Positions 5,951 through 35,831 of a DNA stretch of 38,435 nucleotides are shown here, piece by piece. A program made the position numbers and the translations under genes. The notes beneath the pieces are model-generated. The model did not search any database. It worked only from the letters and a program-made list of their open reading frames with translations, and was not told the origin of the DNA. Each line of letters opens with the position of its first letter. Position 1 is the stretch's first letter. The stretch is from an uncultured Prolixibacteraceae bacterium (GTDB taxonomy: Bacteria; Bacteroidota; Bacteroidia; Bacteroidales; Prolixibacteraceae), in NCBI GenBank assembly GCA_964486235.1, contig CAZANK010000001.1, positions 2,488-40,922 of the forward strand, read 5' to 3'.

Positions 5951-5968
5951 ACTATTAATTTGTTAATT

Positions 5969-7906: not shown

Positions 7907-7932
7907 CTATAAAAAACTAAACTTTTAACAAG

Positions 7933-9165: not shown

Positions 9166-9185
9166 TAATGACAAAGCGTTAAATT

Positions 9186-15757: not shown

Positions 15758-15790
15758 ACCGGAAGGAGTTCCGGCAACGGCCGATTCACC
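15755..15790 (+). repeat. Junction repeat copy 1 (TGAACCGGAAGGAGTTCCGGCAACGGCCGATTC), containing the hairpin CCGGAA-ggag-TTCCGG
   Basis: Begins at the FecR stop codon. It is similar to 18077-18112: the first 10 nt are identical and about 26 of 33 aligned positions match. Confidence 0.6.
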
Positions 15791-15957
15791 TTATCGTTTA
15801 TTTGACAAAATATGAAAAGAATCTGATGCACGTATCTGTTTTACCGACAGGCAGACCGGGTTGGATATACGCTCACCTCGTGAAGCTAAAACTCTTCCTT
15901 CAGCGAGTCTTCCGATTTACGAAATTTCAAATTAAGGAGAGCGACCACTTAAAAGTG

Positions 15958-21100: not shown

Positions 21101-21581
21101 TTCATACAGTTTTCTGCTCAATGTATCATGGAAAGGATTTGATTATAATATGATTTGGCAAGGAGTCGGGAAAAGAGACCTCTGGCTCGATTCACCTAAT
21201 TTCTGGGGCGCCGGATGGATATGGACAGCCGTGGCCTTTGAAGAACATATGGATTATTGGACTGAAGACAACAGAGATGCTTATTTCCCCAGACCATACA
21301 TGGATAAAGGTGGCAAAAACCATCAGGTTCAAACAAGGTTCCTTCAAAACGGCGCATACCTGCGTTTGAAATCATTACAGTTGGGCTATACCTTACCTGA
21401 AAATCTTACCCGGAAATGCAGGGTTAAAAAATTAAGGTTTTTTGTAACTGGCGAAAATTTGTTAACATTTACGAAACTTCCCAAGAATTTTGATCCGGAA
21501 TCCACAGGTGGTGCTCATGGTGCGGGAATGATTTATCCCCTGCAGATAAATTTGGCCACTGGCGTTAATATAACCTTCTAA
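18156..21581 (+). CDS. SusC/RagA-family TonB-dependent receptor with an N-terminal STN signalling domain (TonB-dependent transducer)
   Basis: Signal peptide MKLTTILLFIVCVTFGNSFSQ. STN-like VRLSVHFDKSDIREVLLTIEEKTDYVFLYKD. VTGRVTDTAGDPIPGVSVIVNGTSVGTITDSEGNFSL. Plug region VVVIGYGIQKKVNLSGAV. C-terminal barrel strand ending in F (GVNITF). Alternative starts at 18198 or 18219 are possible. Confidence 0.93.
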   Translation: MKKKREVLHPYADEMRLNFRKMKLTTILLFIVCVTFGNSFSQVRLSVHFDKSDIREVLLTIEEKTDYVFLYKDQIFDFSQKISAAFNEAKFEDVLKDFCDQTNISYEIRNRQIILKSKEPDGLPTAQQPQKRTVTGRVTDTAGDPIPGVSVIVNGTSVGTITDSEGNFSLQVPGDVKALTFSFVGMKTLEVPAAGKTTFFIEMDEETVGVDEVVVIGYGIQKKVNLSGAVDVVTSEALVNRPVNNVVQALQGMAPNLNVTVGNEGGELGGKMSMNIRGIGSISGSGGNPYILVDGIEQSIYNINPEDVESISVLKDAAASAIYGARAAFGVILITTKRGQTDGVTVNYSNSFSFATPINRPKSVNSIKFAEYFNLASANDGNVPIFEPIIIENMHKYQAGELTDWTMPIPWEPNYWLTYQGGWANTDWYKVYYKDWVPKSTHGISLSGGDQRTQFFVSGSTFDQDGLLRYGDDTYIRNNLNAKINTSVNDWLRFSFLSKFNRTNLNRPSYDKDAMYANIARSWPTNDVFFPDGNRHYETGLIYVQQGDRYIENSNEFTVIPGIEIEPVKGWVINANYRWKMNTNGYTNHEAKVQGTFTDGSPFYLRPNNYFARNQYESYYNSPNVYSTYHKKIGSHQFTALAGFEQEKVDYQSSYSRKDDLISDEKPSLGTATGKEYASGTLGHWATRSYFGRLNYDFREKYLLEVSARRDGSSKFEKGYRWGLFPSGSMAYIISKESFWEPLETYIPMMKVRGSFGSLGNQDVANYLYVERLPVYTNLPYIMGDDRPNYIGMAGLSSPELTWERVNTTNFGLDVGLVKNKLTASIDYFIRDTYDMLGPVESLPAVLGTEVPRSNNATLKTNGFELIVGWKDKIKDFSYDAKFMLSDAKTKIMEYYNPQDLLSAPFYEGMQMGEIWGYTTTGLFQTDQEAQSKDQSYLSKEVWRAGDVQYADLNGDEKINIGKNTVGDHGDLSIIGNSTPRYSYSFLLNVSWKGFDYNMIWQGVGKRDLWLDSPNFWGAGWIWTAVAFEEHMDYWTEDNRDAYFPRPYMDKGGKNHQVQTRFLQNGAYLRLKSLQLGYTLPENLTRKCRVKKLRFFVTGENLLTFTKLPKNFDPESTGGAHGAGMIYPLQINLATGVNITF

Positions 21582-21608
21582 ATTATGAAAATTATGAAAA
21601 TTATGAAA
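21582..21608 (+). repeat. Three perfect tandem copies of the 9-mer ATTATGAAA spanning the SusD-like start codon
   Basis: Read directly. It produces three in-frame ATGs (MKIMKIMK...) immediately after the SusC stop at 21579-21581. Confidence 0.85.
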
Positions 21609-23396
21609 CGATATATACCTGTTATTCTTATTATTGGATCGCTCTTCACATGGTCATGTAGTGAAGGCTTCCTTGAAAGGTATCCACTCGATGAGTTAGC
21701 GCCTCAGGATTTTTTCAATTCTCCTGAAGAACTGCAAATCTATGCCAACAGATTTTATGTTCTCCTTCCTGCCCATCAGGGATATTTCAATACATTTTAT
21801 GTTGATGCGAATAGTGATAATCTGGTGCCTGCTGAATTCGACATGAGGCTTGCCGGAACACGTACAGTTCCTTCATCTGTTTCTGCCACTACTGTTAATA
21901 CCCGGTTTTCTATTGTTTATGGTTGGAATTGGGCTGACATTCGGCAGGCAAATTACTTCCTCGAGCATTGCAATAAGGCCACTGGTACACCAGAAGACCT
22001 TAAACAATACATAGGTGAAGTAAGGTTTTTCAGGGCATTCCTTTATTTTGACAAGGTTAAGACTTTTGGGGATGTCCCATGGATCAGTAAAACCACGAAT
22101 ACGACTTCTCCCGAACTATACATTCCTCGGACAAGCCGGAAGGTTGTGACCGATTCCATCATCGCGGATCTGGATATCGCGATAAGTTATTTAAAACCTG
22201 CTGCCCAGGCGAATGCCTTCAGAATAAATAAAGAGGTAGCTATGCTTTTAAAAGCACGCGTTTGTCTTTATGAGGGTACCTGGGAGAAATACCATAGCGG
22301 CACCCCACTTGGGGTGTCCGGTTCCGACGGTTCACAATTCATACAGAAAGCTGCTGAGGTTGCTGATCAACTTATGCAAACAAACGCGCACAGTATTTAC
22401 AAAGGACCTGCCGGACGGGAGTATTGGTCTCTTTTCAACCAGTTGGACTACACCGGGAATCCAGAGGTAATGCTTTGGAAAAAATACGATATAGGACTTC
22501 AGATAACACACAATGTGGCAAGATACATGGCAGGAGGAATTGGTCAAATAGGAATGTCGAAAGGGTTAATAGACAGCTATTTATGTACAGACGGAAAGCC
22601 TATTTCTATTAGTCCGTTGTTCCTTGGCTATGATTCTTTGCTCATGGAGGCAACAAATCGTGACCCCCGGCTCCAGCAATCGGTATTCCTCCCGGGAGAC
22701 GATCAGAGAATCAATGGACCCGGCGGCACACTGAACGTGAAATTCGAAAAACCCACTTTGGATGGGATGGGTGAGTTCCGGAACACCACAGGCTTCGCTA
22801 TTTATAAAGGAGTTAATCCTGATTATTCACAGTCATCAAATGACAATGTCGGTACACAGGGATCTATTATTTTTCGATATGCCGAAGCCTTGCTAATCTA
22901 TGCTGAAGCAAAGGCCGAAATGGGAAATATTACTCAAGCGGATGTCGACAGAACCATCAATCGGCTGCGCGACAGAGTGGGCATGATCCATTTGGATATC
23001 AATAATATCAGCACCGATCCCAACTGGGATTATCCGACCCTCTCTCCGGTCATTAATGAGATCAGGCGGGAACGAAGAGTGGAACTGTCCTGTGAAGGAT
23101 CAAGATGGGATGATCTGGCTCGTTGGAGAGCGCATCACCTCATTGTAGGTAAACGTCTCAAAGGAGCCAAATATACCGGCACAAATCTGGATGGTGCATA
23201 TAAAGATGCTCAGGGAAATCCAAGTATAGTAATCGGAGTAAATCTGTATGTTGATGCCAATGGTTTTATTGATCCCTATCAGAACGTTTTTCCAAATGGA
23301 TTCGGATTCGATCCAAATCGTGATTATTTATCACCTATTCCAAGCGACGAAATCACGTTGAATGACAAACTGGTACAAAATCCAGGTTGGGAATAA
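21585..23396 (+). CDS. SusD/RagB-family nutrient-binding outer-membrane lipoprotein
   Basis: Lipobox FTWSCSE. SusD motifs RINKEVAMLLKARVCLYEGTW, IFRYAEALLIYAEAKAEMG, ERRVELSCEGSRWDDLARW and SPIPSDEITLNDKLVQNPGWE. It starts 3 nt after the SusC-like gene. Confidence 0.92.
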   Translation: MKIMKIMKRYIPVILIIGSLFTWSCSEGFLERYPLDELAPQDFFNSPEELQIYANRFYVLLPAHQGYFNTFYVDANSDNLVPAEFDMRLAGTRTVPSSVSATTVNTRFSIVYGWNWADIRQANYFLEHCNKATGTPEDLKQYIGEVRFFRAFLYFDKVKTFGDVPWISKTTNTTSPELYIPRTSRKVVTDSIIADLDIAISYLKPAAQANAFRINKEVAMLLKARVCLYEGTWEKYHSGTPLGVSGSDGSQFIQKAAEVADQLMQTNAHSIYKGPAGREYWSLFNQLDYTGNPEVMLWKKYDIGLQITHNVARYMAGGIGQIGMSKGLIDSYLCTDGKPISISPLFLGYDSLLMEATNRDPRLQQSVFLPGDDQRINGPGGTLNVKFEKPTLDGMGEFRNTTGFAIYKGVNPDYSQSSNDNVGTQGSIIFRYAEALLIYAEAKAEMGNITQADVDRTINRLRDRVGMIHLDINNISTDPNWDYPTLSPVINEIRRERRVELSCEGSRWDDLARWRAHHLIVGKRLKGAKYTGTNLDGAYKDAQGNPSIVIGVNLYVDANGFIDPYQNVFPNGFGFDPNRDYLSPIPSDEITLNDKLVQNPGWE

Positions 23397-23493: not shown

Positions 23494-25194
23494 ATGTATC
23501 GGAAACATCTTCCTTCGGCTAGATGGTTATGTTTAATCTGTTTAGTCCTTTGCTGTAGTTGTGTAAAAAAAGTGACAATAGATTCTTTGGTCAAGGAGAT
23601 GACCCAAAGAGAAAGTCTTAGTTATTTTCCACGGAATCCTTATGTTCACAAACAATTCAGCAGTTACAATCCGGCATCAAAATCACCTGAAAAAGAGGGT
23701 TGGTTTGAAAACTTCGATATGTCTCATTTCATTCGGGTGGAAGAAGATGCCGGAAGGCGCGAATTTGTGATGCTTGATGCCGATGGGCCGGGTGCAATTG
23801 TCCGATGGTGGATGACCTTTTATAAAGCTCAAAACGGCGTGTTGCGGATTTATGTGGATCATGATTCAATTCCTGTTATTGAGGGATCACCAAACAAGTT
23901 ATTGAGCGGTGACCTTCTGACAAAATCTCCACTCGCGGTATCTGTCCAGGCAGGAGCTGACATTGGGGAAGAAGGACGTGATTACGATCACAATCTCTAT
24001 GTTCCCATACCCTTTGCACGTCATTGCAAAATTACTTACGAATGCGATTCGCTGGTTTTACGCTACGATTATGAGGGCATCAAAGTACCTCAAGGCTATT
24101 ATTCGCCCGATGTGTTTTATAATATTGGGTACCGTGCCTACGCGAAAAACATAACTGTTGAGTCTTCTTCACGCCAGTCACTCAAAGAGGCCGGAACTCT
24201 TTTTGATATAGCTGGTAAATCTTTATTGAACAACCAGGTAAACTCCGTCTCTAACGAGAAATTTGAGAAACTCATTCTGCCGGGAGATTCACTCGTCATT
24301 GAACTCACAGAAGAGAAACATGCCATAAATCAATTGATGGTTGATTTGGAAGCAAACGATATGCAGCAGGCTTTACGTTCTGCATTGTTAAAAGTATCAT
24401 TTGACGGATATCAAACAATTTGGGCTCCCATCGGTGAGTTCTTTGGGACAGGATATAGTCTGAATCCCCATAAAACATGGATGAATCAGAGAGATGAAAA
24501 TGGCAGGATGGAATCTTACTGGGTAATGCCCTTCAGAGAAAAATGTGCACTTACGATCGTCAACCATGGAAATGAAAATATAAAGCTGAAGGGATCGGTA
24601 GGCCTGATACCATATAAATGGACCACAAACAGCATGTATTTCGGAGCCTTTTGGCACGAATACCGGCATCTTAAAACCAGAGACGGGAAGGGTTTGCCTT
24701 TCGACCTGAATTTTATTGACATCAAGGGGAAAGGAGTATATGTGGGCGATCAGGTTACTCTCTTCAACAATACCTATCAGTGGTGGGGCGAAGGCGATGA
24801 GAAAATTTTTGTTGACGGAGAGTCTTTTCCATCCAGTTTTGGAACAGGTTCAGAAGATTATTACGGTTATTCATTTGCGCGGCCAGAATCATTTTCACAT
24901 CCCTTTTTATCGCAGCCGGAAGGAACGGGAAATACAAATTGGGGGATTACCGTTAACATGAGGCATCGCTCTCTTGATGCGATCCCATTTCATACATCAA
25001 TCAGCTCAAATATCGAATTATGGCATTGGGCTAATATCCGTATGAACTACGCACTCACATCTTATTTTTATGTATTGCCCCCTTTTACGATCAATGCCAT
25101 GCCGAACATTGAAAGCATAAGAAATCGGGTTGCAATTAAGAAAGATGATATTAACAACGATGAGAATAGTCCCCGGACTACTTTTACCAAATGA
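23494..25194 (+). CDS. DUF2961 / glycoside hydrolase family 172 protein (lipoprotein)
   Basis: Signal and lipobox CLVLCCSC. DUF2961 motifs DADGPGAIVRWWMTF, YVPIPFARHCKITYE and WWGEGDEKIFVDGESFPSSFGTGSEDYYGYSF. Confidence 0.85.
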   Translation: MYRKHLPSARWLCLICLVLCCSCVKKVTIDSLVKEMTQRESLSYFPRNPYVHKQFSSYNPASKSPEKEGWFENFDMSHFIRVEEDAGRREFVMLDADGPGAIVRWWMTFYKAQNGVLRIYVDHDSIPVIEGSPNKLLSGDLLTKSPLAVSVQAGADIGEEGRDYDHNLYVPIPFARHCKITYECDSLVLRYDYEGIKVPQGYYSPDVFYNIGYRAYAKNITVESSSRQSLKEAGTLFDIAGKSLLNNQVNSVSNEKFEKLILPGDSLVIELTEEKHAINQLMVDLEANDMQQALRSALLKVSFDGYQTIWAPIGEFFGTGYSLNPHKTWMNQRDENGRMESYWVMPFREKCALTIVNHGNENIKLKGSVGLIPYKWTTNSMYFGAFWHEYRHLKTRDGKGLPFDLNFIDIKGKGVYVGDQVTLFNNTYQWWGEGDEKIFVDGESFPSSFGTGSEDYYGYSFARPESFSHPFLSQPEGTGNTNWGITVNMRHRSLDAIPFHTSISSNIELWHWANIRMNYALTSYFYVLPPFTINAMPNIESIRNRVAIKKDDINNDENSPRTTFTK

Positions 25195-26285
25195 CACGAA
25201 ATATGAAAATCTGCAATGCTTTGAGCACAGTAAAATGGGTGGGACTTTTAACATTCATGACAATTGTAAAGTCATGTAATTCTCCGGAAAAATTCTATTC
25301 TGCCGATGACTTTGCCCTTGTTCAGAAGATTGATGCACATTTTCATTATCTAACCATGAATGAGGAATTCCTCAAATTGGCATCAAATCTGAACTTCCAT
25401 TTGCTTTCACCAAATTGGGATGGTGAGTATTCTATAGACGAGCAAATGAAAATTGCCCATAAGATATGGCTTTCCAATCCCAAAGGATTTGCATTTTTCG
25501 GTACTTTTTCGGTTGACAGTTTTGGTCAACCTGAGTTTGCTGACCTTACGATTGCCCGCATCAGGCAATGTTTACAAGGAGGCGCTTCTGGAATAAAAAT
25601 CTGGAAAAACATCGGGATGGTTTTAAAAGACCAGGATGGGAAATTTGTAATGATTGACGACCCGGCTTTCGATCCCGTTTTTACATTTCTCGAAGAGAAT
25701 AACATTCCGGTTCTGGCTCATTTGGGAGAACCAAAAGACTGCTGGCTACCCGAAAGTGAGATGACAGATCCGGGTGACAAAAGCTATTATCGAAACAATC
25801 CTGAATACCACATGTATCTGCATCCCGAAGTTCCTTCTTACGACGATCAGATTACAGCAAGGGACAATATCCTAAAAAAATACCCAAAACTTGATTTTAT
25901 CGGAGCACATCTGGGCAGTCTGGAATGGAATATTGATGAGTTGGCTCAACGTTTTGATATGTTCCCGAATTTCAAGGTTGACATGGCCGCCAGATTATAC
26001 CACCTGCAATATCAGTCTAAAAGCAACAGAGAAAAAGTCCGCAATTTTATGATCAAGTATCAGGACCGGATTTTATATGCCACAGATAATGAGGTACACG
26101 ATATTTCAGGTACGGATACTAAGACAACGATGCGAAATCTTCAACGGGGCTGGATGGCGCAATGGAGCTACCTCGCTACTGATTCAGTTATTAACAATAC
26201 AAAAGGATTAAAACTTCCAAAGGATGTTATTGATAAGATCTATTTCAAAAATGCGAAAAAGTATTTTAATCAAAAACAGAATTAA
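25191..26285 (+). CDS. Amidohydrolase-family (PF04909-like) metal-dependent TIM-barrel hydrolase, lipoprotein
   Basis: Lipobox IVKSCNS. Metal-binding HxH in KIDAHFHY. Later VLAHLGEP, FIGAHLGS and ILYATDN are spaced as in amidohydrolase_2 proteins. The start overlaps the upstream stop (ATGA). Confidence 0.6.
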   Translation: MTRNMKICNALSTVKWVGLLTFMTIVKSCNSPEKFYSADDFALVQKIDAHFHYLTMNEEFLKLASNLNFHLLSPNWDGEYSIDEQMKIAHKIWLSNPKGFAFFGTFSVDSFGQPEFADLTIARIRQCLQGGASGIKIWKNIGMVLKDQDGKFVMIDDPAFDPVFTFLEENNIPVLAHLGEPKDCWLPESEMTDPGDKSYYRNNPEYHMYLHPEVPSYDDQITARDNILKKYPKLDFIGAHLGSLEWNIDELAQRFDMFPNFKVDMAARLYHLQYQSKSNREKVRNFMIKYQDRILYATDNEVHDISGTDTKTTMRNLQRGWMAQWSYLATDSVINNTKGLKLPKDVIDKIYFKNAKKYFNQKQN

Positions 26286-26295
26286 ACTTAAAGAC

Positions 26296-27120
26296 ATGAA
26301 AAAATTATTGCTGATTTCAAGCCTGTTAATACTCTTTCAATGTGTGAAAGGAAACGATGATTTTAACAATGGTTATAATCCATCCGAAAAACTTGTGTTA
26401 AAAGATGTTTCATACGGGGAATTACCGCGACAAAAATTCAACGCTTACCTTCCGGCAAACAGAAATAAAAATACGAAAGCAATCATTCTTATTCATGGAG
26501 GCGGCTGGAAATCAGGAGATAAAAGCGATTTCGATTTATTTGCATCCGCATTTGCCGATTCAGCTATTGCAGCTTTTGCCATAAATTACAGGTATGCCAA
26601 TACAAATGATCGTGTAAGTTATGTTGAAATTTTGAAGGATATTGACAAGGCAATTAGTTGCATCATCGATAGTTCTGTGACTTTTTCCTTTAATCCGAAA
26701 CAAATATGTCTTTTGGGACATAGTGCAGGAGCGCACCTGGCATTACTCTATACTTTTCGTGACAACAAGAAGGGTGTTGTGAATAAAGTTGTTTCATTGG
26801 CAGGCCCAACAGACTTGACCGACCCTCAATTACTCAATATCTCCGGGATAAATGACTTGGTAAACACATTGGTAGGGAATGATTTAGATAAACGTGAAGA
26901 TGCCAGTCCCATAAATTATGCAGGCGAAATTCCCACCTACTTGTATCATGGCAAAGCGGATGAAGTAGTTCCCAGTCAGCAATCCGTTAAATTCTTCGAA
27001 AAAATCAGTAGTCGGAATCCGAGGAATCGTTGCGCCATAATTGAAGGCTGCGGACATGGGTTTGATCTGGCGGAATTCATTAAAATATTAAATGAAACAG
27101 TTGCATTCGTTAAAGAATAG
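26296..27120 (+). CDS. Alpha/beta-hydrolase esterase (HGGGW / GHSAG type), lipoprotein
   Basis: Lipobox ILFQCVK. Oxyanion motif ILIHGGGWKSGDK. Nucleophile elbow LLGHSAGAHLA. C-terminal GCGHGF. The ORF-track start at 26224 overlaps the upstream gene; ATG 26296 gives a proper signal peptide. Confidence 0.8.
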   Translation: MKKLLLISSLLILFQCVKGNDDFNNGYNPSEKLVLKDVSYGELPRQKFNAYLPANRNKNTKAIILIHGGGWKSGDKSDFDLFASAFADSAIAAFAINYRYANTNDRVSYVEILKDIDKAISCIIDSSVTFSFNPKQICLLGHSAGAHLALLYTFRDNKKGVVNKVVSLAGPTDLTDPQLLNISGINDLVNTLVGNDLDKREDASPINYAGEIPTYLYHGKADEVVPSQQSVKFFEKISSRNPRNRCAIIEGCGHGFDLAEFIKILNETVAFVKE

Positions 27121-27169
27121 CTATTGGATATTCATTTTCTGAAATAAGGTCTTTAATCGGTGAATTGAA

Positions 27170-29266
27170 ATGAAAGCAAGATTTTATATCGTTGCATGGA
27201 GCCTGATCGTTACTCTTTCCTGTATGCAACGGGGATTGGCGCAAACCATAACTACCGAGAGCCTGCTAAACGACATGGTTGATTTTGAACGATTGACCCG
27301 TTTGTCCAAAGAAACCTATAAAGCAGTGCAATATTCTTCATACGACCGGAGAAGCACAAAACCAACCGATAATTTCTGGTTTGCCAATGAAGATGGGTTT
27401 GGCAATGAACCAATTCCCGGCTTTGAAAAAGTACTGAAACAACCGGATGCAAATGGAATAGGGGAGTATCTGATATGCGATATTCGAAAGCCAGGTGCCA
27501 TTTTACGCCTTTGGACTGCGCAGATAACCGGTAAAATCCGTTTGTTTTTAGATGATATGACCTCCCCTGTTTTTGAAGGAGATGCCCAGGATTTTTTTTG
27601 GAAAGCAATTGAAAAGTTATCCGACACTCCGGTTCAAATTGATTATGTCAACACCTTCAGGCAATTTGATGCGGTTTATCTCCCCATTCCTTTTGCCAGG
27701 GGATGCCGGATTGAATGGATCGGGGATATTAAAGAAACTCATTTTTATCATGTAGGTCTCCGCGTTTATGACTCCAACGTAAAGGTCGAAACGTTCAATG
27801 TTAAAGAGATCCCTAAATATGTTCAAAAACTGGAGGAAATAAACAGGATTTTAAGGAATCCGAAAGATGGAGTTTCCAATAAAAAGCGAATTATTCAAAC
27901 AAAGGAAATTAGTGTGCCTGTGGCCTCAACAAAAGAATTATTTAACATTACAGGACAACAGGCGGTTGAATATTTCTCCATCAAATTAAAAGCAAATAAT
28001 CCTGAAAATGCACTCCGGAAGAGTCTCTTAAAAATCTGTTTTGATGATTCTTCTGTTCCCCAGATACATGCGCCAATTGGCGATTTTTTTGGAGCAGCTC
28101 CTGGCCTGAATCCATATCAATCACTTCCTTTTTCAGTGGAAACAGATGGTACAATGACTTGCCGGTTTGTTATGCCATTTAAAAATGCTGCGCGCATAGA
28201 AATTGAAAATAATTCGGATGAGAATATTACTGTTTCAGGAGGTCTTGGTACCACAGATTATAAATGGGAGGATGGAAAAAGTATGCATTTCAGGGCACGC
28301 TGGAAAATCAATCATGAATTAACTGCTACGAATATTAACGCGGGTGATAATCGTGCTTCCGATATTCTATACTTGATGGCATCGGGTCAAGGCCGGATTG
28401 TTGGCGCCGCCGCCTATTTATATAATCCCAGCAATGTTCCCACTCCCTGGGGCAGTTGGTGGGGTGAAGGCGATGAAAAAATTTATGTAGATCAGGATAC
28501 CTTTCCTTCATTCTTTGGTACAGGCTCCGAAGATTATTTCAATTACTCATGGTCGTCGGCAAAAATATTTAGTTTCCCGTATTGCGGGCAACCCAGAAAT
28601 GATGGTCCCGGAAACCGTGGTTATGTTTCAAATTTCCGTTGGCATATCCTCGATGATATTCCATTTAAAGATAAAATCGCTTTTTTCATGGAGTTGGGCC
28701 ATCATGGAAATGTTCCCCGTTTTTCGTACGGAAGGATGGTCTGCCTCTATGCCTCACCCGAACTTATTGATGATTATCAGAAAATAACGATTGATGACCT
28801 TCGTGACATTTCCTATCGACCCTGGACCCCGGAGGCATACCTCGGTTCTGCAGGCTTCCGATTCATTCAAGCTGAAATGTTTATTGTTGAAAATAAGACG
28901 ATTAAGGTGGAAAATGGATCGCTGTGGTCAGAAGGAAGCATTGTGATGTGGACTCCGGCAAAAACAGCAGAGAAACTCAAATTCATGATCAATTCCGATA
29001 AAGCCGGCGATAAAACAAATATCGGTTTTACACTTGCCCATAGTCCGAATGGTGGCACAATGGCCATATTCATAAATGGAATGCCGGTAAAGTTTGATGG
29101 CAAAGAAACAGTGAACCTTTTCGAGCCAAATCAGCAGATTTTGGAAAACCATTTTTCAGAATCAATCCAATTACTAAAAGGTAATAATGAAATAATTTTC
29201 GAATCCAGAGATACCGAAATGGGTAAAAAAATAGGAATTGATTTCGTCTGGATGAGAGAGAAATGA
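27170..29266 (+). CDS. DUF2961 / glycoside hydrolase family 172 protein with an extra C-terminal beta-sandwich-like domain of about 150 aa
   Basis: Signal peptide MKARFYIVAWSLIVTLSCMQRGLAQ. DUF2961 motifs KPGAILRLWTAQ, YLPIPFARGCRIEW and WWGEGDEKIYVDQDTFPSFFGTGSEDYFNYSW. It is a paralog of 23494-25194 but about 130 aa longer at the C-terminus. Confidence 0.85.
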   Translation: MKARFYIVAWSLIVTLSCMQRGLAQTITTESLLNDMVDFERLTRLSKETYKAVQYSSYDRRSTKPTDNFWFANEDGFGNEPIPGFEKVLKQPDANGIGEYLICDIRKPGAILRLWTAQITGKIRLFLDDMTSPVFEGDAQDFFWKAIEKLSDTPVQIDYVNTFRQFDAVYLPIPFARGCRIEWIGDIKETHFYHVGLRVYDSNVKVETFNVKEIPKYVQKLEEINRILRNPKDGVSNKKRIIQTKEISVPVASTKELFNITGQQAVEYFSIKLKANNPENALRKSLLKICFDDSSVPQIHAPIGDFFGAAPGLNPYQSLPFSVETDGTMTCRFVMPFKNAARIEIENNSDENITVSGGLGTTDYKWEDGKSMHFRARWKINHELTATNINAGDNRASDILYLMASGQGRIVGAAAYLYNPSNVPTPWGSWWGEGDEKIYVDQDTFPSFFGTGSEDYFNYSWSSAKIFSFPYCGQPRNDGPGNRGYVSNFRWHILDDIPFKDKIAFFMELGHHGNVPRFSYGRMVCLYASPELIDDYQKITIDDLRDISYRPWTPEAYLGSAGFRFIQAEMFIVENKTIKVENGSLWSEGSIVMWTPAKTAEKLKFMINSDKAGDKTNIGFTLAHSPNGGTMAIFINGMPVKFDGKETVNLFEPNQQILENHFSESIQLLKGNNEIIFESRDTEMGKKIGIDFVWMREK

Positions 29267-29300
29267 TCAGGATTAAAATATTTTGAGATAAAGGGAGGCT

Positions 29301-30458
29301 ATGTTGCTAATAAAGAGATATATACAGGAACTTGAGATTTTTCAGGTCAGAAATAGAACAATTCTCTCGAAAGAACGGGTAATCTCCGTAGATGCATTAA
29401 GAGGTTTTGATATGTTTTGGATTATGGGAGGCGATATTGGGTTTCAGGCCCTTGATCATGTTTTCCACAGTAAGCTGTCAGGTTTTGTTAGAACACAATT
29501 TGATCATACTGAATGGTTCGGCTTTCATTTTGAAGACATTATCATGCCACTTTTTCTTTTTATTGTTGGCATTTCAATGGTCTACTCATACAGAAAAAGA
29601 CTCGGTAGTGGTTCCACTGACAAATCGTTGTGGATTCACACAATGAAGAGAGTTGCCCTACTTTGGTTATTAGGTATGGTTGTTCAGGGAAATCTGCTAA
29701 GTTATGACCTCAACCATATTCAATTTTACACAAACACCTTGCAGGCTATTGCAAGCGGTTATCTGATAGCAACCATTTTCATTCTGTATCTGCCGGTCTT
29801 TTATCAGATGCTGGCTACAATTGGTTTAATGATAGTTTATTGGGCAATTCTGGCACTTATTCCAATTGGAGGAACAACAGCCAACGCATATTCTCCTGAT
29901 GGGAATGTGGCAATGTATGTTGAAAAGTTGGTTATGGGGCGTTTTATCGGCTGGGGAACTTATACCTGGATTGTTTCGAGCCTGAATTTTGGGGCGACTG
30001 TCATGGTCGGTGTTTTTGCCGGGTACATGATGCAATCAAATGAGAGTAAGATGAAGAAATTCTGGAATTTCGGGATTCTTGGAATTTCACTGATTATCCT
30101 TGCGTTAATCCTGAATATTTGGCATCCAATAATCAAGAAGATATGGACAAGCTCATTTGTTCTCTTTTCCGGTGGTATCAATTTGCTGATACTTGCAGCT
30201 TTTTACCTGGTGATTGATATCTGGAACGTTCGGAAAGGCACAAAATGGATGATAATCATAGGATCGAATGCCATTTTTGCCTATGTGGCCTGGCATCTGT
30301 TTAGCAACAGTTTTATAGGCATGGCTGAAATCTTTTTGAAAGGTTTAAAACCATGGATTGGAAACTGGTTTGAAGCACTGGGTATTTTTGGCGGTACGCT
30401 GATCTTATACCTCATCCTCAAGTATATGTACAAGAATAAAACTTTCATTAAAATTTAA
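29301..30458 (+). CDS. DUF5009 / HGSNAT-like polytopic membrane acyltransferase (heparan-alpha-glucosaminide N-acetyltransferase-like)
   Basis: The diagnostic N-terminal motif RVISVDALRGFDMFWIMGG is followed by about 10 hydrophobic helices. It has no signal peptide. Size is about 385 aa. Confidence 0.7.
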   Translation: MLLIKRYIQELEIFQVRNRTILSKERVISVDALRGFDMFWIMGGDIGFQALDHVFHSKLSGFVRTQFDHTEWFGFHFEDIIMPLFLFIVGISMVYSYRKRLGSGSTDKSLWIHTMKRVALLWLLGMVVQGNLLSYDLNHIQFYTNTLQAIASGYLIATIFILYLPVFYQMLATIGLMIVYWAILALIPIGGTTANAYSPDGNVAMYVEKLVMGRFIGWGTYTWIVSSLNFGATVMVGVFAGYMMQSNESKMKKFWNFGILGISLIILALILNIWHPIIKKIWTSSFVLFSGGINLLILAAFYLVIDIWNVRKGTKWMIIIGSNAIFAYVAWHLFSNSFIGMAEIFLKGLKPWIGNWFEALGIFGGTLILYLILKYMYKNKTFIKI

Positions 30459-30489
30459 ACCAAAACCGAAATACTAATCTCTGAAAACT

Positions 30490-31959
30490 ATGAATACTAA
30501 TCGCCGGAGTTTTTTTAAAATCGCGGGAGTTGCCAGTGTCAGCATATTTTCCGGGGCCTTATCTTCCTGTGATTCAAATGAAAAAAAAAATCAAACTGGC
30601 TCACTTTTAAACATCGAAGAGGAGGCAAATAAAGCACACGCTCAACGCTTTAACATGAGCGGTTATGCAGCGCCAAAACTAGATGTTGTACGAATTGGAT
30701 TTATCGGACTGGGAATGCGAGGACCTGGCGCAGTTGAACGAATAGCTAATATTGAAGGTGTCGAAATTAAAGCGCTTTGCGATGAACGAATGGATCGGGT
30801 TGAAAGCGCGCAAAAAATTCTCGCCGAACGCGGATTGCCTGAGGCAAAGGCATATGGGGGAAGGAAAGAGGCATGGAAAGAGCTTTGTCGAAGTAATGAA
30901 ATTGACCTTGTTTATATTTGCACACCCTGGCAGCTTCATACTCCAATGGCTGTATTTGCAATGGAAAATGGCAAACATGCCGCTTCTGAAGTTCCCGCAG
31001 CCACAACTCTTGAAGAGGCATGGCTACTGGTCGAAACATCTGAAAAAACAAAAAAGCACTGCATGATGCTTGAAAACTGCTGCTACGACTTTTTCGAACT
31101 GCTGACTTTAAATATGGCACGACAAGGTTTTTTTGGAGAACTGACCCATGTTGAGGGAGCTTATATTCACAACCTCGCTGATCTGAATTTCAGTAAAAAA
31201 GGCTATACCGAAATGTGGCGGTTAAAGCACAACCAGCATCGCAATGGCAATCTTTACCCTACTCATGGTCTCGGACCAGTTTGTCAGGCGTTGAACATCA
31301 ATCGCGGCGATAAGATGGAATACCTGACGTCCATGTCGACAAATGATTTCCAATTGGCAAAAATGGCTGATAATCTGGCAAAGGAGGATGCTTTCTACAA
31401 AGAATTTGCAACGACAAACTATCGCGGGAATATGAACACAACCCTTGTCCGGACTGAGAAAGGCAAGACAATAATGATTCAGCACGACACCACTTCTCCA
31501 AGACCATATTCGCGTATCCACCTCATTTGCGGAACCAAGGGAGTAGCCATCAAGTATCCTGAGCCCGGAAGAATCGCGACAGGTCACGAATGGTTCGATG
31601 ATGCGAAAATGGCTGAGATTCAGAAACAGTATACTCCTGAAATTGTGAAGCGGGTAGGTGAGATGGCAAAGAAAATTGGTGGCCACGGCGGTATGGATTT
31701 TATGATGGACTGGCGCCTTATTGATTGCCTTCGCAACGGACTGCCGCTTGACCAGGATGTTTACGACGCGGCATTATGGAGTTGTATTGCACCATTAAGC
31801 GAATGGTCTGTTGCCAATCGCTCGAATTCGATACAGGTTCCGGACTTTACCTGCGGATCCTTTAAATCAAATCTACAGGTTGATATCAGTCTGTCTCAAG
31901 GCGGAAATACTGGAGTCAGGGCCATAACGAGCAGTTCGGGGAGCCAATTAAAAGTATAA
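30490..31959 (+). CDS. Gfo/Idh/MocA-fold NAD-dependent enzyme with a Tat signal, GH109-like (alpha-N-acetylgalactosaminidase family)
   Basis: Twin-arginine signal plus lipobox-like RRSFFKIAGVASVSIFSGALSSC. Rossmann motif VRIGFIGLGMRG. YICTPWQLHTPMAVFAMENGKHAASEVPAATTLEEAWLLVETSEKTKKHCMMLENCCY...EGAYIHNL matches the GH109 pattern. Confidence 0.7.
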   Translation: MNTNRRSFFKIAGVASVSIFSGALSSCDSNEKKNQTGSLLNIEEEANKAHAQRFNMSGYAAPKLDVVRIGFIGLGMRGPGAVERIANIEGVEIKALCDERMDRVESAQKILAERGLPEAKAYGGRKEAWKELCRSNEIDLVYICTPWQLHTPMAVFAMENGKHAASEVPAATTLEEAWLLVETSEKTKKHCMMLENCCYDFFELLTLNMARQGFFGELTHVEGAYIHNLADLNFSKKGYTEMWRLKHNQHRNGNLYPTHGLGPVCQALNINRGDKMEYLTSMSTNDFQLAKMADNLAKEDAFYKEFATTNYRGNMNTTLVRTEKGKTIMIQHDTTSPRPYSRIHLICGTKGVAIKYPEPGRIATGHEWFDDAKMAEIQKQYTPEIVKRVGEMAKKIGGHGGMDFMMDWRLIDCLRNGLPLDQDVYDAALWSCIAPLSEWSVANRSNSIQVPDFTCGSFKSNLQVDISLSQGGNTGVRAITSSSGSQLKV

Positions 31960-32040
31960 AATGGTGATATGGATTACCCTCAAGATCGTATCAAAACAAA
32001 TTTTGACGTGTCAAATACATTAATAAATCAATTGTTAAAG

Positions 32041-34560
32041 ATGGAACACCTTAATCATAAGCATTTAGTAATAACTATAATTCTGAGCTTATCCTTGTTT
32101 CTTTGTTCGGCTAAAGAAAAGAGCATTAATCCCCGGGATCATGCTTTTAACGGGTATTACTCAGGAAAGTATCTGGATCGTGTTGCTTTCCCAATTGGTG
32201 GCATTGGCGCCGGAATGTTTTGTATGGATGGCACAGGATCACTTTCTCATTTGTCAGTAAAGCATAGGCCTGAATTATTCAATGAGCCTGTCTGTTATGC
32301 AGCAATATGCGTCAAAGGAAGGGAAAATGGGGCAAAAGTTTTGGAAGCACAGGTTCCTGAATGGAAACTGTATGGTTCAGCAGGATCGACAATCGGCGCC
32401 CTGGGAAAGTCATATGGTCTTCCTCGGTTTGAGAATAGTCGCTTTTTACCAAGGTTTCCATTCGCCACGCTTGAACTTCAGGATAAAGATATTCCGTTTG
32501 AGGTTGAAGTAACGGGTTGGAGCCCCTTCATTCCGGGTGATGAAGATAATTCAAGTTTGCCGGGCGGTGCCATGGAATATTCTTTCAGAAACAATACAAA
32601 AGAAGAAATTGAAGCGGTTTTTTCCTGGAACTCAAGGAATATTATTACCGAATGGGTTGGACGTATTGTAGAAATAAAGAATGGTTTTACTTTAACGGGC
32701 GATCCACCCGATTCCGGGAACACTGGCTTGTCAGTCTTTATAAATGACAACGATGCCGTGGTGGACTATTGCTGGTTCCGGGGTGAGTGGTTTGATCCCC
32801 ATATGATTCTTTGGAAGAACATTGAAAATGGTAACGTTGTTTCTAATCGTCCGGTTGATTCACCCGCGCCTGGCGCATCAATATATGTCCCGTTTAGACT
32901 TAAACCTGGCGAAAGTAAAAGCATCGTTGTCAACTTCTGCTGGTATCTGCCCCAAACGAACCTGTCAATAGGGAATGTGCCAGGCACGGAAGAGAAGCTC
33001 CCTCCCTATAAACCCTGGTATACGGCTCGTTTTGATAATCTGGATGAAGTCAATAAGTACTGGATGACGAATTATTCAGACCTGAAGCAAAAAAGCGAAC
33101 TTTTTCGTGACGCGTTTTTCTCCTCAACACTTCCTCCCGAAGTCATTGAAGCAGTTGCTGCAAACCTGGCAATTCTGAAATCTCCAACCATTTTGCGGCA
33201 GTTTGACGGACGGCTTTGGGCTTGGGAAGGATGCGATGATAACGAAGGCAGTTGTCATGGCAGTTGCACACACGTTTGGAATTATGCCCAGGCGATGCCC
33301 CATCTCTTTCCGGGCCTTGAAAGAACGTTTCGAGAAACGGAACTAATGGTCAGTCAAAATGATAAAGGGCATCAGAATTTCAGGGTGAATCTGCCAATTT
33401 CTACGCCTCCGCACGATTTTCATTCAGCAGCCGACGGTCAGTTGGGCGGAATAATGAAAGTATACCGGGAATGGAGGATCAGCGGAGACACTGAATGGAT
33501 GAAAGGTCTGTTTCCACTTGTTAAAAAAAGTATGGATTATTGCATTGAGACCTGGGACCCGGATCAGAAGGGTTATCTCGAAGAACCCCACCACAATACA
33601 TACGATATCGAATTCTGGGGACCTGATGGGATGTGTACCAGCTTTTACCTGGGCGCCCTCACTGCATTTAATGAAATGAGCAAAGCAGTAGATTCTCCAT
33701 ACGGAGAGTATGAAAACCTGCTTGCTAAGGGTAAGGTATTTACTGAATCGGAGCTGTTTGACGGAGAATATTTCATACAAAAAGTAAAATGGGAGGGATT
33801 GCATTCCCCAAGTCCTGTTGTGGCTGCAAAGAGCAGTTACAGAACCAGCTATTCTGAAGAAGCGTTGAAGCTGTTAAATGAAGAAGGCCCTAAATATCAG
33901 TATGGGAAAGGGTGCTTGTCGGATGGTATTTTAGGAATGTGGATGGCTTCTGTTTGTGGTTTGCCTGAAATTATCGATCAGGAAAAAGTAACCAGTCATC
34001 TTGCTGCAGTTTATAAAAACAACTTTAAATCAAACCTTATTGATCATGCCAATCCCCAACGGCCAACTTATGCCGCAGGAAGAGATGGAGGTTTATTACT
34101 ATGTACCTGGCCTAAAGGAGGTAGATTGTCTCTTCCTTTCATCTACAGTAACGAGGTTTGGACCGGAATAGAATACCAGGTTGCAAGTCATCTCATGTTT
34201 CATGGGGAGGTTGAAAAAGGACTGGATATTGTCCGTACCTGCCGGAAACGATATGATGGACGTGTACGAAACCCGTTCAATGAATACGAATGTGGAAGCT
34301 GGTATGCACGCGCCATGTCGAGTTATGCACTTCTCGAAGGACTTACCGGTGTCCGCTATGATGCCGTAGACCGCACTTTATTTATCGATTCAAAGATTGG
34401 AGATTTTAAAAGTTTCCTTTCCGCTGAAACCGGCTTTGCCAATGTTGGACTCAAAAACGGGAAGCCCTTTCTCGAAGCTGTATATGGAACTATTGATATC
34501 CAAAAAGTCATCGTTTCGGGCGTCGAAAAACAATTGATCCATCAATCGTTATCAAAGTAA
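32041..34560 (+). CDS. Glycoside hydrolase family 116 (GBA2-type) protein
   Basis: Signal peptide MEHLNHKHLVITIILSLSLFLCSAKE. GH116 N-terminal domain motif FPIGGIGAGMFCMDGTGSLSHLSV. Catalytic-domain (DUF608) motif WAWEGCDDNEGSCHGSCTHVWNYAQAMPHLFPGLERTFRETE. HNTYDIEFWGPDGMCTSFYLGAL. The ORF-track start at 31969 adds 24 residues ahead of the signal peptide. Confidence 0.82.
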   Translation: MEHLNHKHLVITIILSLSLFLCSAKEKSINPRDHAFNGYYSGKYLDRVAFPIGGIGAGMFCMDGTGSLSHLSVKHRPELFNEPVCYAAICVKGRENGAKVLEAQVPEWKLYGSAGSTIGALGKSYGLPRFENSRFLPRFPFATLELQDKDIPFEVEVTGWSPFIPGDEDNSSLPGGAMEYSFRNNTKEEIEAVFSWNSRNIITEWVGRIVEIKNGFTLTGDPPDSGNTGLSVFINDNDAVVDYCWFRGEWFDPHMILWKNIENGNVVSNRPVDSPAPGASIYVPFRLKPGESKSIVVNFCWYLPQTNLSIGNVPGTEEKLPPYKPWYTARFDNLDEVNKYWMTNYSDLKQKSELFRDAFFSSTLPPEVIEAVAANLAILKSPTILRQFDGRLWAWEGCDDNEGSCHGSCTHVWNYAQAMPHLFPGLERTFRETELMVSQNDKGHQNFRVNLPISTPPHDFHSAADGQLGGIMKVYREWRISGDTEWMKGLFPLVKKSMDYCIETWDPDQKGYLEEPHHNTYDIEFWGPDGMCTSFYLGALTAFNEMSKAVDSPYGEYENLLAKGKVFTESELFDGEYFIQKVKWEGLHSPSPVVAAKSSYRTSYSEEALKLLNEEGPKYQYGKGCLSDGILGMWMASVCGLPEIIDQEKVTSHLAAVYKNNFKSNLIDHANPQRPTYAAGRDGGLLLCTWPKGGRLSLPFIYSNEVWTGIEYQVASHLMFHGEVEKGLDIVRTCRKRYDGRVRNPFNEYECGSWYARAMSSYALLEGLTGVRYDAVDRTLFIDSKIGDFKSFLSAETGFANVGLKNGKPFLEAVYGTIDIQKVIVSGVEKQLIHQSLSK

Positions 34561-34570: not shown

Positions 34571-35830
34571 ATGAAAATCAATCATTCTTTTCTTTCAATT
34601 TTTTTCCTTTTCTTATCATCAACTACAGGAAGCGCCCAGGTAAACAACCTGAAAATCAGTGAAGATACTGACGTGATTGTAATGAAGAAAGTAGCTGACC
34701 ATATACTTTCCAATACCACTTATGATTTTATTATTCCTGGCGATGGAACAATTCTGAAAACTGTGAATTCTTCGAATTATAAAGAGTCAATTGCTTTACG
34801 AAGCCCTTATAATACCTGGAACTATTGGAACGGGGTATTGAGTATTGCAATGATCAGGATAGCAGAGAGTTTAGATGATAAAAGATATCAGAAATTCGCG
34901 ATTAAGAATTATGAATTCTCATTCGACAACCTCCCATTTTTTAAAAGCAGGTATAAAGGACAGGATAAATGGATCTATCCGTTCGGACAGGCTATCGTAA
35001 CCAAAGAGTTAGATGATTGCGGCGCTATGGGAGCCGGCCTGATAGAGGTCAACCAAATTAAACCACGAGAAGAATACAACGATTATCTGTTGAATGCTGC
35101 CTTGCATATACTTAACGGGCAAGACCGGCTTGATGACAAAACGCTGGTACGTAAATTTCCTTACGAGATGACCTTGTGGGCCGATGATCTGTACATGAGC
35201 ATTGTGTTTCTTTCAAGAATGGGTAAATGGACGGGTGACAATAAGTATTTTGATGATGCCATACTTCAGGTAGAAAACTTCACGAAGTATTTATTCAATC
35301 CAAACACGGCGCTTTATTACCATAGCTGGTATAGCGACCTTAAAACCAATGGTGTTGCGCATTGGGGCAGATGCAATGGTTGGGTTATGATGGCCCAGGT
35401 TGAATTATTGGATTATTTGCCAACGAATTATCCCAATCGGGAAAAGTTACTGAAAATACTTTATCAGCAGATTTTAGGAATTTCCCGATACCAGGATATC
35501 TCGGGAATGTGGCATCAATTGATTGACAAAAACGATTCTTACCTCGAAACCTCATCAACGGCCATGTTTACGTATAGCATTGCAAAAGCTGTAAACAATG
35601 GTTGGATTGACAAAAGGTATATTTCAGTGGCCATTGAAGCTTGGGACGGTTTGAAGAAAAATATCAATGAGGATGGACTGGTCAGGAACATCTGTGAGGG
35701 GACAGGTATCGAGAATGACCTCCTTTACTATTATAAAAGGCCAACTCCGCTGAATGATATTCATGGATTGGGGGCAATTTTATTGGCTGGCAATGAGATC
35801 ATTAAGTTTAAAAGAGAAAATAATAAATAA
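34571..35830 (+). CDS. GH105/GH88-family unsaturated glycuronyl (rhamnogalacturonyl/glucuronyl) hydrolase
   Basis: Signal peptide FLFLSSTTGSAQ. YteR-type motifs LWADDLYMSIVFLSRMG, HWGRCNGWVMMAQVELLDYLP, GMWHQLIDKNDSYLETSSTAMFTYSIAKAVNNGWI and HGLGAILLAG. Confidence 0.85.
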   Translation: MKINHSFLSIFFLFLSSTTGSAQVNNLKISEDTDVIVMKKVADHILSNTTYDFIIPGDGTILKTVNSSNYKESIALRSPYNTWNYWNGVLSIAMIRIAESLDDKRYQKFAIKNYEFSFDNLPFFKSRYKGQDKWIYPFGQAIVTKELDDCGAMGAGLIEVNQIKPREEYNDYLLNAALHILNGQDRLDDKTLVRKFPYEMTLWADDLYMSIVFLSRMGKWTGDNKYFDDAILQVENFTKYLFNPNTALYYHSWYSDLKTNGVAHWGRCNGWVMMAQVELLDYLPTNYPNREKLLKILYQQILGISRYQDISGMWHQLIDKNDSYLETSSTAMFTYSIAKAVNNGWIDKRYISVAIEAWDGLKKNINEDGLVRNICEGTGIENDLLYYYKRPTPLNDIHGLGAILLAGNEIIKFKRENNK

Positions 35831-35831
35831 A

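Follow-up and report, generated by a model that had tools for sequence, protein, structure and literature searches.

A Bacteroidales locus with tandem GH172 and GH116 genes and a candidate role in scavenging decorated D-arabinofuranose-type glycans

Introduction

What does a bacterium take apart with two GH172 genes and a GH116 gene that lie behind a dedicated SusC/SusD pair? This question is raised by a 38,435-nucleotide stretch of DNA from an uncultured Prolixibacteraceae bacterium (GenBank assembly GCA_964486235.1, contig CAZANK010000001.1, positions 2,488 to 40,922 of the forward strand), hereafter called the window, in which the three genes occupy positions 23494-34560. An earlier note on this DNA had proposed a locus for the degradation of a D-arabinofuranan or another furanosyl glycan. 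The mycobacterial cell envelope is the best-known source of glycans of D-arabinofuranose (D-Araf). Of the loci that degrade such glycans, just two have been dissected so far.

The founding member of GH172 is alphaFFase1, a synthase/hydrolase of difructose dianhydride I (DFA I), while every GH172 assayed so far, Dg71 included, accepts alpha-D-Araf, and the GH172s of Dysgonomonas gadei are inactive on DFA I. Dg71 is partially duplicated, so that a single chain completes its active site, and has a further, fourth beta domain after this; the arrangement has been described as a 'second double-jelly-roll architecture' (Ross et al., August 2026 preprint). Dg71 is labelled by an alpha-D-Araf aziridine but hardly acts on plain arabinan substrates. 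Which substrate it prefers is unknown according to the authors, who suggest either a decorated (e.g. succinylated) arabinan or the junction between arabinan and galactan (Ross et al. 2026 preprint). The window locus offers a concrete genetic context for asking what Dg71-type enzymes cut, a question left open in that preprint.

Results

We confirmed two GH172 genes and one GH116 gene at positions 23494-34560, with open reading frame (ORF) ends exactly where the earlier note had placed them. Full-model Pfam matches were obtained for DUF2961/GH172 in GH172a (23494..25194, 566 amino acids [aa], lipoprotein signal with its Cys; E=2e-56, residues 294-526) and in GH172b (27170..29266, 698 aa; E=1e-59, residues 282-525), and for both GH116 domains in the GH116 protein (31969..34560, 863 aa, signal peptide, probable start 32041; PF04685 E=7e-56, PF12215 E=7e-36). 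The family assignments of the earlier note were borne out by profile models. The three genes belong to an array of ~24 kb on the + strand (13895-38084), in which all genes are co-directional and the gaps, with plausible start codons, are at most 97 bp. The order is ECF sigma factor, FecR, acylase, SusC, SusD, GH172a, Amidohydro_2, BD-FAE esterase, GH172b, NagX-like protein, GH109, GH116, GH105-like protein and CE1-like esterase, and every enzyme of the array carries an export signal (signal peptide, lipobox or twin-arginine translocation [TAT] motif). The array looks like an operon, and its best explanation would be one polysaccharide-utilisation locus (PUL) of an uncultured Bacteroidales.

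We compared the window proteins by tblastn with homologous loci and examined the Pfam-annotated neighbourhoods of four further homologues (L085-L088). A core composed of the acylase, SusC, SusD, GH172a, Amidohydro_2, GH172b, the NagX-like protein, GH109 and GH116 was found in 11 other Bacteroidales loci, at 47-83% identity. Moreover, a protein identical to GH172b is encoded on six contigs (ENA, JGI and Logan assemblies), with identical gene order on the four that we examined, and the lists of GH116 and GH172b homologues have ~20 contigs in common. Since the same arrangement is found in many independent metagenome contigs and metagenome-assembled genomes (MAGs), it is not a chance juxtaposition. 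The organism is uncultured, and the locus is known from MAGs and metagenome contigs only. The NagX-like acetyltransferase and GH109 are parts of this conserved core that had been left out of the earlier note's argument.

GH116 is classically a glucosylceramidase family. Both domains of the window protein, an N-terminal beta-sandwich (PF12215) and an (alpha/alpha)6 catalytic domain (PF04685), were matched, and in a search against all PDB sequences the best match was ExoMA2 (8IC6; E=2.6e-102, 346 bits), with ~40% identity across 445 aligned catalytic-domain residues. The sole other PDB match was 9wiz, of the glucosylceramidase type (E=1e-7, 33 bits); the beta-glucosidase TxGH116 gave no match at E<=0.01 in this search. 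ExoMA2 is an exo-beta-D-arabinofuranosidase of Microbacterium arabinogalactanolyticum that is strictly specific in assays; Glu431 is its nucleophile and Asp557 its acid/base, and Arg483 and His446 read O2 of the Araf residue, where TxGH116 has His507/Asp452 (Shimokawa et al. 2023, PMC10509167). When residues were mapped onto 8IC6 with a 4-residue chain offset, we found that the window GH116 keeps the equivalents of Glu431 and Asp557 (motifs AWEG and NTYDIEF) as well as those of Arg483 and His446 (motifs QNFR and CTHVW). The gap in score (346 versus 33 bits) and the four kept residues support placement of this protein with GH116 subfamily 4 and not with the beta-glucosidases, and it is predicted to be an exo-beta-D-arabinofuranosidase.

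In both GH172 proteins the acid/base E433, the nucleophile E454 and the adjacent D455 are kept, and these residues are invariant across 52 homologues. The GH172b motif WWGEGD...GTGSEDYFNYSWS keeps the alphaFFase1 positions W267, E270, E291, D292 and W298; at the last of these, GH172b has Trp and GH172a has Phe461. The next position separates fructofuranose (Fruf) from Araf enzymes, with Gly299 in the Fruf-accepting alphaFFase1 and Asn253 in the D-Araf-specific ExoMA1 (PMC10509167), and here the window proteins have neither Gly nor Asn (Ala462 in GH172a and Ser462 in GH172b). Their catalytic domains are also about equally distant from alphaFFase1 (a DFA/fructofuranosidase) and from Dg79 (a D-arabinofuranosidase).

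Both proteins are ~190-320 residues longer than canonical GH172s. The extra N-terminal ~250 residues are weakly similar to the GH172 jelly roll (blastp E 3e-6 to 7e-5 against the short GH172s of orthologous loci), and precomputed Pfam annotation of GH172a lists GH172_1st, GH172_dom and GH172_2nd. In an AlphaFold2 (AF2) model of GH172b (pLDDT 83.9, pTM 0.85), the N-terminal extra region is beta-rich, and a Foldseek search with this model found the GH172 structures 4KQ7, 8AH3, 8IC8 and 7V1V (E ~1e-16). The proteins appear to have a partially duplicated, Dg71-type architecture, a likeness drawn from the published description of Dg71. With their catalytic residues in place, GH172a is predicted to be a retaining exo-alpha-D-arabinofuranosidase-type enzyme and GH172b an exo-alpha-D-arabinofuranosidase-type enzyme.

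The same Foldseek search also found CBM35/MiXBM modules (template-modelling score on the target, TMt, 0.6-0.8 over ~140 columns), which on the model are assigned to the C-terminal domain of GH172b. This domain is a beta-sandwich at residues ~560-698 (window ~28850-29263), and one of its CBM35-type matches was solved with delta-4,5-anhydrogalacturonic acid. GH172b has the CBM35-like domain and GH172a does not.

Directly downstream of GH172b, the NagX/HGSNAT-like transmembrane N-acetyltransferase (29301..30458, 385 aa) aligns end to end with the NCBIfam model NagX NF046061 (E=1e-56), with 192 bits relative to an equivalog cut-off of 480 bits, and its Pfam Acyl_transf_3 and HGSNAT_cat matches are weak and under the gathering scores. 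Its sequence contains DHTEWFG, an instance of the 'H..W.G' motif, which we take to be typical of the NagX/HGSNAT family. The following gene encodes a GH109 protein of the NAD-dependent N-acetylgalactosaminidase type (30490..31959; TAT signal with an RRSFFK motif, and lipobox; Pfam GFO_IDH_MocA and Glyco_hydro_109_C). Its NAD-binding Rossmann domain, GH109 C-terminal domain and PDB matches to solved N-acetylgalactosaminidases (6T2B, E=5e-96; 2IXA, E=1e-68) identify this oxidoreductase-like protein, at the level of sequence, as a genuine GH109. NagX-like orthologues (64-79% identical) lie directly upstream of GH109 in seven loci, as in the window. NagX itself is a transmembrane glucosamine N-acetyltransferase; on the grounds of fitness data and of its kinship with HGSNAT, it has been proposed that NagX acetylates glucosamine in the periplasm and draws on acetyl-CoA of the cytoplasm (PMC9007349). 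The window protein is likewise predicted to use cytoplasmic acetyl-CoA, with a hexosamine that has a free amine as its periplasmic acceptor.

Two further hydrolases belong to the core. The Ntn-hydrolase N-acyl amidase (acylase; 15754..18075, probable start near 15958; Pfam Penicil_amidase E=1e-128) matched the cephalosporin/glutaryl-7-aminocephalosporanic acid (7-ACA) acylases in the PDB over its full length (E=1.5e-165, 555 bits), and is kept in orthologous loci at 52-66% identity. Mapping of residues from the alignment indicated that it keeps Ser1beta and Tyr33beta, and that four others are substituted (Arg57beta to Ile, Gln50beta to Leu, Tyr149alpha to Phe and Arg155alpha to Ile). We take these four residues to be those that bind the glutaryl carboxylate in class I glutaryl-7-ACA acylases. 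The protein thus appears to be a relative of the class I cephalosporin acylases and not a glutaryl acylase. Since all four glutaryl-carboxylate residues are replaced by hydrophobic ones, the acylase should take an uncharged acyl group, and should be an amidase with a hydrophobic acyl pocket. For the same reason we rejected a glutaryl or succinyl amidase, which would have suited a succinylated arabinan. We know of no established natural substrate for the class I glutaryl-7-ACA acylases, an industrial enzyme family of which the window protein may be a natural relative for hydrophobic acyl groups.

The second of these enzymes is a putative metal-dependent TIM-barrel hydrolase and lipoprotein, Amidohydro_2 (25191..26285; Pfam Amidohydro_2 E=4e-11), in which the metal ligands HxH, H, H and D are kept and D48, H50, H52, H177, H240 and D299 are invariant. 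A search of the PDB gave no sequence match, and the best folds for its AF2 model (pLDDT 92.6) were LigY, LigJ and 3IJ6, with TM scores of just ~0.5. It is fused in frame with GH172a in L085 (7416-10004; 862 aa, GH172 first) and, in another genome, with GH172b in protein P0186 (1027 aa, amidohydrolase first), in each case as a continuous ORF. These fusions argue that Amidohydro_2 acts on the same substrate as the GH172s, as an orphan hydrolase functionally coupled to them. We considered a cytoplasmic sugar lactonase and rejected it because of the lipoprotein signal, the fusion to secreted GH172s and the lack of a close structural relative.

In contrast to these core genes, three other enzymes of the array are not conserved. 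The BD-FAE-type alpha/beta-hydrolase esterase (26224..27120, probable start 26296, lipoprotein; Pfam BD-FAE E=5e-35) has no counterpart in orthologous loci, and the CE1-type 'Esterase' (35754..38084, 776 aa with a long C-terminal extension, probable start 35832; Pfam Esterase PF00756 E=2e-14), which has weak NCBIfam matches to feruloyl esterase and polyhydroxyalkanoate depolymerase, has none in orthologous MAG loci. The GH105-like protein, of the unsaturated-uronyl-hydrolase type (34571..35830), matched Pfam Glyco_hydro_88 (E=1e-78), which bears out that a GH88/GH105-type gene is present, and in the PDB matched 3K11 (E=8e-66, a B. thetaiotaomicron GH105-type structure) and YteR (E=5e-39). Its counterpart is a distant GH88 (28% identity) in L088 only, with none in the other orthologous loci. 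The two esterases and the GH105-like gene thus appear to be lineage-specific accessory additions to the conserved core. Since these genes are not conserved in orthologous loci, the arguments that the earlier note drew from the esterases and from a uronic acid concern such additions. The argument for a heavily acylated substrate had leaned on the two esterases; the acylase and the amidohydrolase are conserved.

Relatives of the tandem GH172 were also sought in one genome per GTDB species; there are at least 584, and all of the best 80 are MAGs. Additional genes in variants of the locus encode a third GH172, of canonical type, a hydrolase of the beta-lactamase family, MFS transporters, DUF6786 and, in divergent orientation, a CocE/NonD hydrolase. 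In some variants, a DUF1080 '3-keto-disaccharide hydrolase' gene directly follows GH109 (L087:14915-17191, L086:13808-14569), and L087 additionally encodes a glycoside 3-dehydrogenase of the BT_2158 family (847 bits, exceeding the equivalog cut-off). These genes suggest that a resistant linkage of the same substrate is attacked oxidatively. At ~40% identity, tandem GH172s are common in Planctomycetota, Verrucomicrobiota, Gemmatimonadota, Aminicenantes and Hydrogenedentota, with heterogeneous neighbourhoods. Among 126 ORFs near distant tandem GH172s (64 loci), the commonest families were C1-like peptidases (13) and fucose-isomerase-like proteins (4). Given this heterogeneity, we gave up inferring a substrate from these neighbours.

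Three kinds of neighbourhood among the relatives deserve mention in their own right. Fucose/arabinose-isomerase-like genes adjoin distant tandem GH172s in 4 of the 64 loci, and one of these, L063, also has a GH116. In that locus (L063:4306-22038), the GH116 is 1296 aa long and is accompanied by a tandem GH172, two TIM barrels similar to xylose isomerase, an arabinose/fucose-isomerase-like gene, a GDSL/WbsX-like protein and a sulfatase, a context that hints at a sulfated glycan; the contig is binned as Bifidobacteriaceae, a label that looks doubtful. In 8 Porphyromonadaceae/Bacteroidales MAG loci (L016, L029, L032, L033, L038, L052, L055 and L084), genes for C1-like peptidases (papain / aminopeptidase C-type; 14 ORFs in all) lie, singly or in twos, beside tandem GH172s of 41-45% identity. 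Finally, in L089 (4310-17029), orthologues of the window's GH109 (66% identity) and GH116 (60-76% identity, with a ~150-aa insertion) lie behind SusC/SusD, and no GH172 is present within 10 kb. Also nearby are a PhoPQ-related protein, an MFS transporter, DUF6786, an Amidohydro_2 other than that of the window, and two genes with weak similarity to ceramidases. The ceramidase-like matches scored 45.7 and 30.5 bits over ~215 and ~190 of 509 model positions, and since they are weak and partial, we downgraded a reading of these genes as bona fide ceramidases.

The remaining genes of the array encode regulation and uptake. An ECF-type (extracytoplasmic function) sigma-70 factor (13895..14527; Pfam Sigma70_r2 and r4_2, NCBIfam Bacteroides-type sigma-70 TIGR02985), the presumed locus regulator, precedes a FecR-type anti-sigma factor (14558..15757; Pfam FecR and FecR_C). 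The SusC/RagA TonB-dependent transporter (18156..21581; Pfam Plug and CarbopepD_reg_2, TIGR04056 860 bits) carries an N-terminal signalling extension, and is followed by a SusD-family surface glycan-binding lipoprotein (21585..23396; Pfam SusD_RagB and SusD-like_3). A scan of the locus for promoters and terminators gave matches at chance level only, and an Rfam scan gave nothing exceeding chance.

Nearly all large ORFs of the window are on the + strand. Upstream of the array lies a second, unrelated SusC/SusD locus (1417-9866) with a FecR protein, an STN-domain SusC, a SusD, a DUF4959/DUF5126/DUF5000 protein and a DUF4998 protein, and with no glycoside hydrolase in view; the ORF before it (56-1246, 396 aa) had no Pfam and no NCBIfam match. 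Between the two loci, imperfect inverted repeats of ~45 nt (10108-10151 and 13762-13806, 82-91% complementary) surround a 3.7-kb segment of low GC content (~35% versus 45%), which contains a GH95-like gene (10525-12813), a 161-aa ORF without family match and a minus-strand IS66-transposase fragment (13401-13739). By its composition and borders this segment looks like a cassette inserted between the two loci.

Discussion

As an answer to the question posed at the outset, we favor the exo-acting scavenging of decorated D-Araf oligosaccharides, possibly from a Corynebacteriales arabinan carrying galactosamine, and would put the chance of this a little short of even. We infer the substrate, the order of steps and the regulation as follows. 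The ECF sigma/anti-sigma pair, together with the extended SusC, probably switches the locus on. Since no endo-enzyme is present, ready-made oligosaccharides or small glycoconjugates would be imported, with no cutting of polymer by the locus itself, and exo-enzymes would dismantle them in the periplasm or at the surface. The two Dg71-type GH172s, their active sites completed within one polypeptide by the partial duplication, would take off alpha-linked D-Araf-type residues in particular decorated contexts, and the GH116 subfamily 4 enzyme would take off beta-linked D-arabinofuranose caps. The acylase, Amidohydro_2 or both might strip an acyl or other substituent from an amino sugar, the NagX-like membrane protein would then N-acetylate the freed amine, and GH109 would act last, to release the N-acetylhexosamine.

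The leading candidate for such a substrate would be decorated D-arabinan fragments of Corynebacteriales cell envelopes, perhaps freed by the endo-arabinanases of other organisms. Mycobacterial arabinogalactan carries non-stoichiometric galactosamine and succinate (PMC10115798). Since these decorations exist and the authors of the Dg71 study suspect a decorated substrate, decorated Corynebacteriales D-arabinan is the best available candidate. The proposal of a D-arabinofuranan degradation locus in the earlier note therefore survives in part: the Araf-type site of GH116, the catalytic Glu residues of the GH172s and the pairing of the two families agree with it, but the locus has no GH183 and no arabinose isomerase or kinase. 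Because there is no endo-enzyme, because the esterases are not conserved and because the NagX-like protein and GH109 belong to the core, we consider that the locus more probably serves the exo-acting scavenging of a decorated oligosaccharide or glycoconjugate of the D-Araf type than the degradation of an arabinofuranan polymer.

Several observations weigh against the arabinan reading, and we set them out together. The GH172 proteins are just 21-26% identical to any characterised GH172, and the Ala and Ser residues at the position that discriminates Fruf from Araf enzymes are uninformative about specificity; with this and the equal distance to alphaFFase1 and Dg79, sequence does not settle between an Araf- and a Fruf-type enzyme. 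As the earlier note had already remarked for the window, GH183/DUF4185 endo-arabinanases are absent from its ORFs, and we found none within 10 kb of four orthologous loci (L085-L088). No fucose/D-arabinose isomerase and no ribulokinase was found in the window or in the same four neighbourhoods, and no DUF4185 was present among the 126 ORFs neighbouring the distant tandem GH172s. Galactosamine is reported mainly from the arabinogalactan of slow-growing mycobacteria, whereas the NagX-like protein and GH109 are core to a locus that is widespread in environmental MAGs. Moreover, an arabinan does not explain the hydrophobic-pocket acylase, Amidohydro_2 or the breadth of distribution, and the beta-lactamase-family and CocE/NonD hydrolases of the variants match no known arabinan feature. 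In L089, the orthologous GH109 and GH116 genes stand together beside ceramidase-like genes and lack a GH172. Finally, no member of this locus type has been tied to a substrate by experiment.

We also considered, tentatively and as something on the unlikely side, that this is a widespread locus type dedicated to an undescribed glycoconjugate with alpha- and beta-D-Araf-type residues and an N-substituted or free-amine hexosamine. Here the amine would be edited in three steps (hydrolysis by the acylase or the new amidohydrolase subfamily, trans-membrane re-acetylation by the NagX-like protein and release by GH109), and the locus would be the natural context of Dg71-type GH172s.

The evidence leaves some room for a furanose that is not D-arabinose but shares its ring configuration (beta/alpha-L-fucofuranose, L-galactofuranose or alpha-D-fructofuranose-type ketosides), from a bacterial or algal heteroglycan with an amino sugar and perhaps a uronic acid. 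The small Ala/Ser at the Gly299 position of alphaFFase1 leaves space for a substituent on the anomeric carbon, the catalytic domains are as close to alphaFFase1 as to Dg79, and the GH105-like gene and the CBM35-like module hint at a uronic acid. Furthermore, a study of a marine Planctomycetota strain lists GH109, GH116 and GH172 together in putative fucoidan loci, tandem GH172s are widespread in Planctomycetota, Verrucomicrobiota and other phyla without an arabinan context, and L063 combines a tandem GH172 and a GH116 with a fucose/arabinose-isomerase-like gene and a sulfatase. Nevertheless, the operon is without sulfatases or fucosidases, the GH105 gene is outside the core, Dg71 and all other assayed GH172s accept alpha-D-Araf, and the GH116 keeps the exact beta-D-Araf-contacting residues of the strictly specific ExoMA2; we therefore regard another furanose as unlikely. 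That active site, of Araf and not of Glc type, also bears on the idea of an N-acylated glycoconjugate (a glycolipid or glycopeptide), from which the amide hydrolase would cleave a peptide or a hydrophobic acyl chain, while the head-group sugars would fall to GH116, GH109 and GH172, in a manner similar to glycosphingolipid catabolism. The hydrophobic pocket that replaces the glutaryl-binding residues of the acylase would suit such a target, as would the classical role of GH116 as a glucosylceramidase family, the recurrence of beta-lactamase-family, CocE/NonD and C1-peptidase genes near relatives, and L089, which lacks a GH172 and in which the GH109 and GH116 orthologues lie beside an MFS transporter, DUF6786 and two ceramidase-like genes. 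However, the ceramidase matches are weak and partial, SusC/SusD systems are usually glycan importers, and we know of no established D-Araf-containing sphingolipid or comparable lipid, so that this idea seems to us distinctly improbable.

An ordinary plant-glycan locus, for pectin/rhamnogalacturonan or for fructan/difructose anhydride, with the GH116 as a beta-glucosidase, was already disfavoured and is hardly credible. It would account for the GH105-like gene, with its similarity to YteR and to the B. thetaiotaomicron GH105-type structure, for the two carbohydrate-esterase-like genes, and for GH172 having a DFA I synthase/hydrolase as founding member, but the GH105 gene and both esterases are missing from almost all orthologous loci, and the locus has no polysaccharide lyases, GH28, GH32 or GH91. 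Likewise, the GH116 did not match beta-glucosidases and has Arg/His where TxGH116 has His/Asp, and the D. gadei GH172s do not act on DFA I.

If the acylase/NagX/GH109 module works as we propose for the scavenging of decorated D-Araf oligosaccharides, it would give bacteria a new way of removing amino sugars that lack an acetyl group or bear an odd acyl group, for example the galactosamine of mycobacterial arabinan, and its enzymes could be used to analyse or strip decorated arabinan. Should the substrate come from elsewhere than mycobacteria, the locus points to a D-Araf-type glycan that is common in the environment and has gone unrecognised. Both the logic of combining GH172 with GH116 and the duplicated architecture of GH172 are already published. 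We found no published description of a locus type with two duplicated GH172s, no GH183 and an acylase/Amidohydro_2/NagX/GH109 module; in a literature search, the combination of GH116, GH109 and DUF2961 turned up only in CAZyme inventories and in one fucoidan paper that lists the families together.

The pairing of GH172 with GH116 subfamily 4 that marks the two characterised D-arabinan loci is present in the window, but since it has no GH183 endo-arabinanase and no arabinose isomerase or kinase, the window locus is not a canonical D-arabinan locus. Like the window, D. gadei PUL42 is a Bacteroidota SusC/SusD-type locus with several GH172s, including the partially duplicated Dg71, and with a putative gene for a GH116 of subfamily 4 (Al-Jourani et al. 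2023, PMC10115798; Ross et al. 2026). PUL42 differs in having two GH183 endo-arabinanases, canonical oligomeric GH172s (Dg67 and Dg79), a fucose isomerase and a ribulokinase, whereas both GH172s of the window appear to be of the duplicated type and the window carries the acylase, Amidohydro_2, the NagX-like protein and GH109, in a comparison that covers part of the PUL42 gene content. The Microbacterium arabinogalactanolyticum cluster (ExoMA1 GH172, ExoMA2 GH116 and EndoMA1/2 GH183) has the same division of labor between an exo-alpha GH172 and an exo-beta GH116 subfamily 4 enzyme (PMC10509167). In contrast to the window, with its secreted enzymes or lipoproteins, SusC/SusD and no endo-enzyme, that cluster is Gram-positive and has an ABC transporter, cytoplasmic exo-enzymes without signal peptides, four GH183 genes and arabinose catabolic genes.

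The amine-editing genes have their own relatives. As with HGSNAT and with NagX (PMC9007349), the NagX-like membrane protein of the window is predicted to acetylate a free-amine hexosamine on the non-cytoplasmic side. For lysosomal HGSNAT, which acts on heparan sulfate, acetylation lets an N-acetylhexosaminidase act, and in the window the NagX-like gene is directly upstream of GH109; the differences are the score (192 versus 480 bits) and the pairing with GH109 in a furanosidase locus, which we have not found described. The acylase resembles the Pseudomonas class I cephalosporin acylases over its full length, including the N-terminal nucleophile Ser1beta, and differs from them in the replacement of the four glutaryl-carboxylate residues and in its place within a glycan locus.

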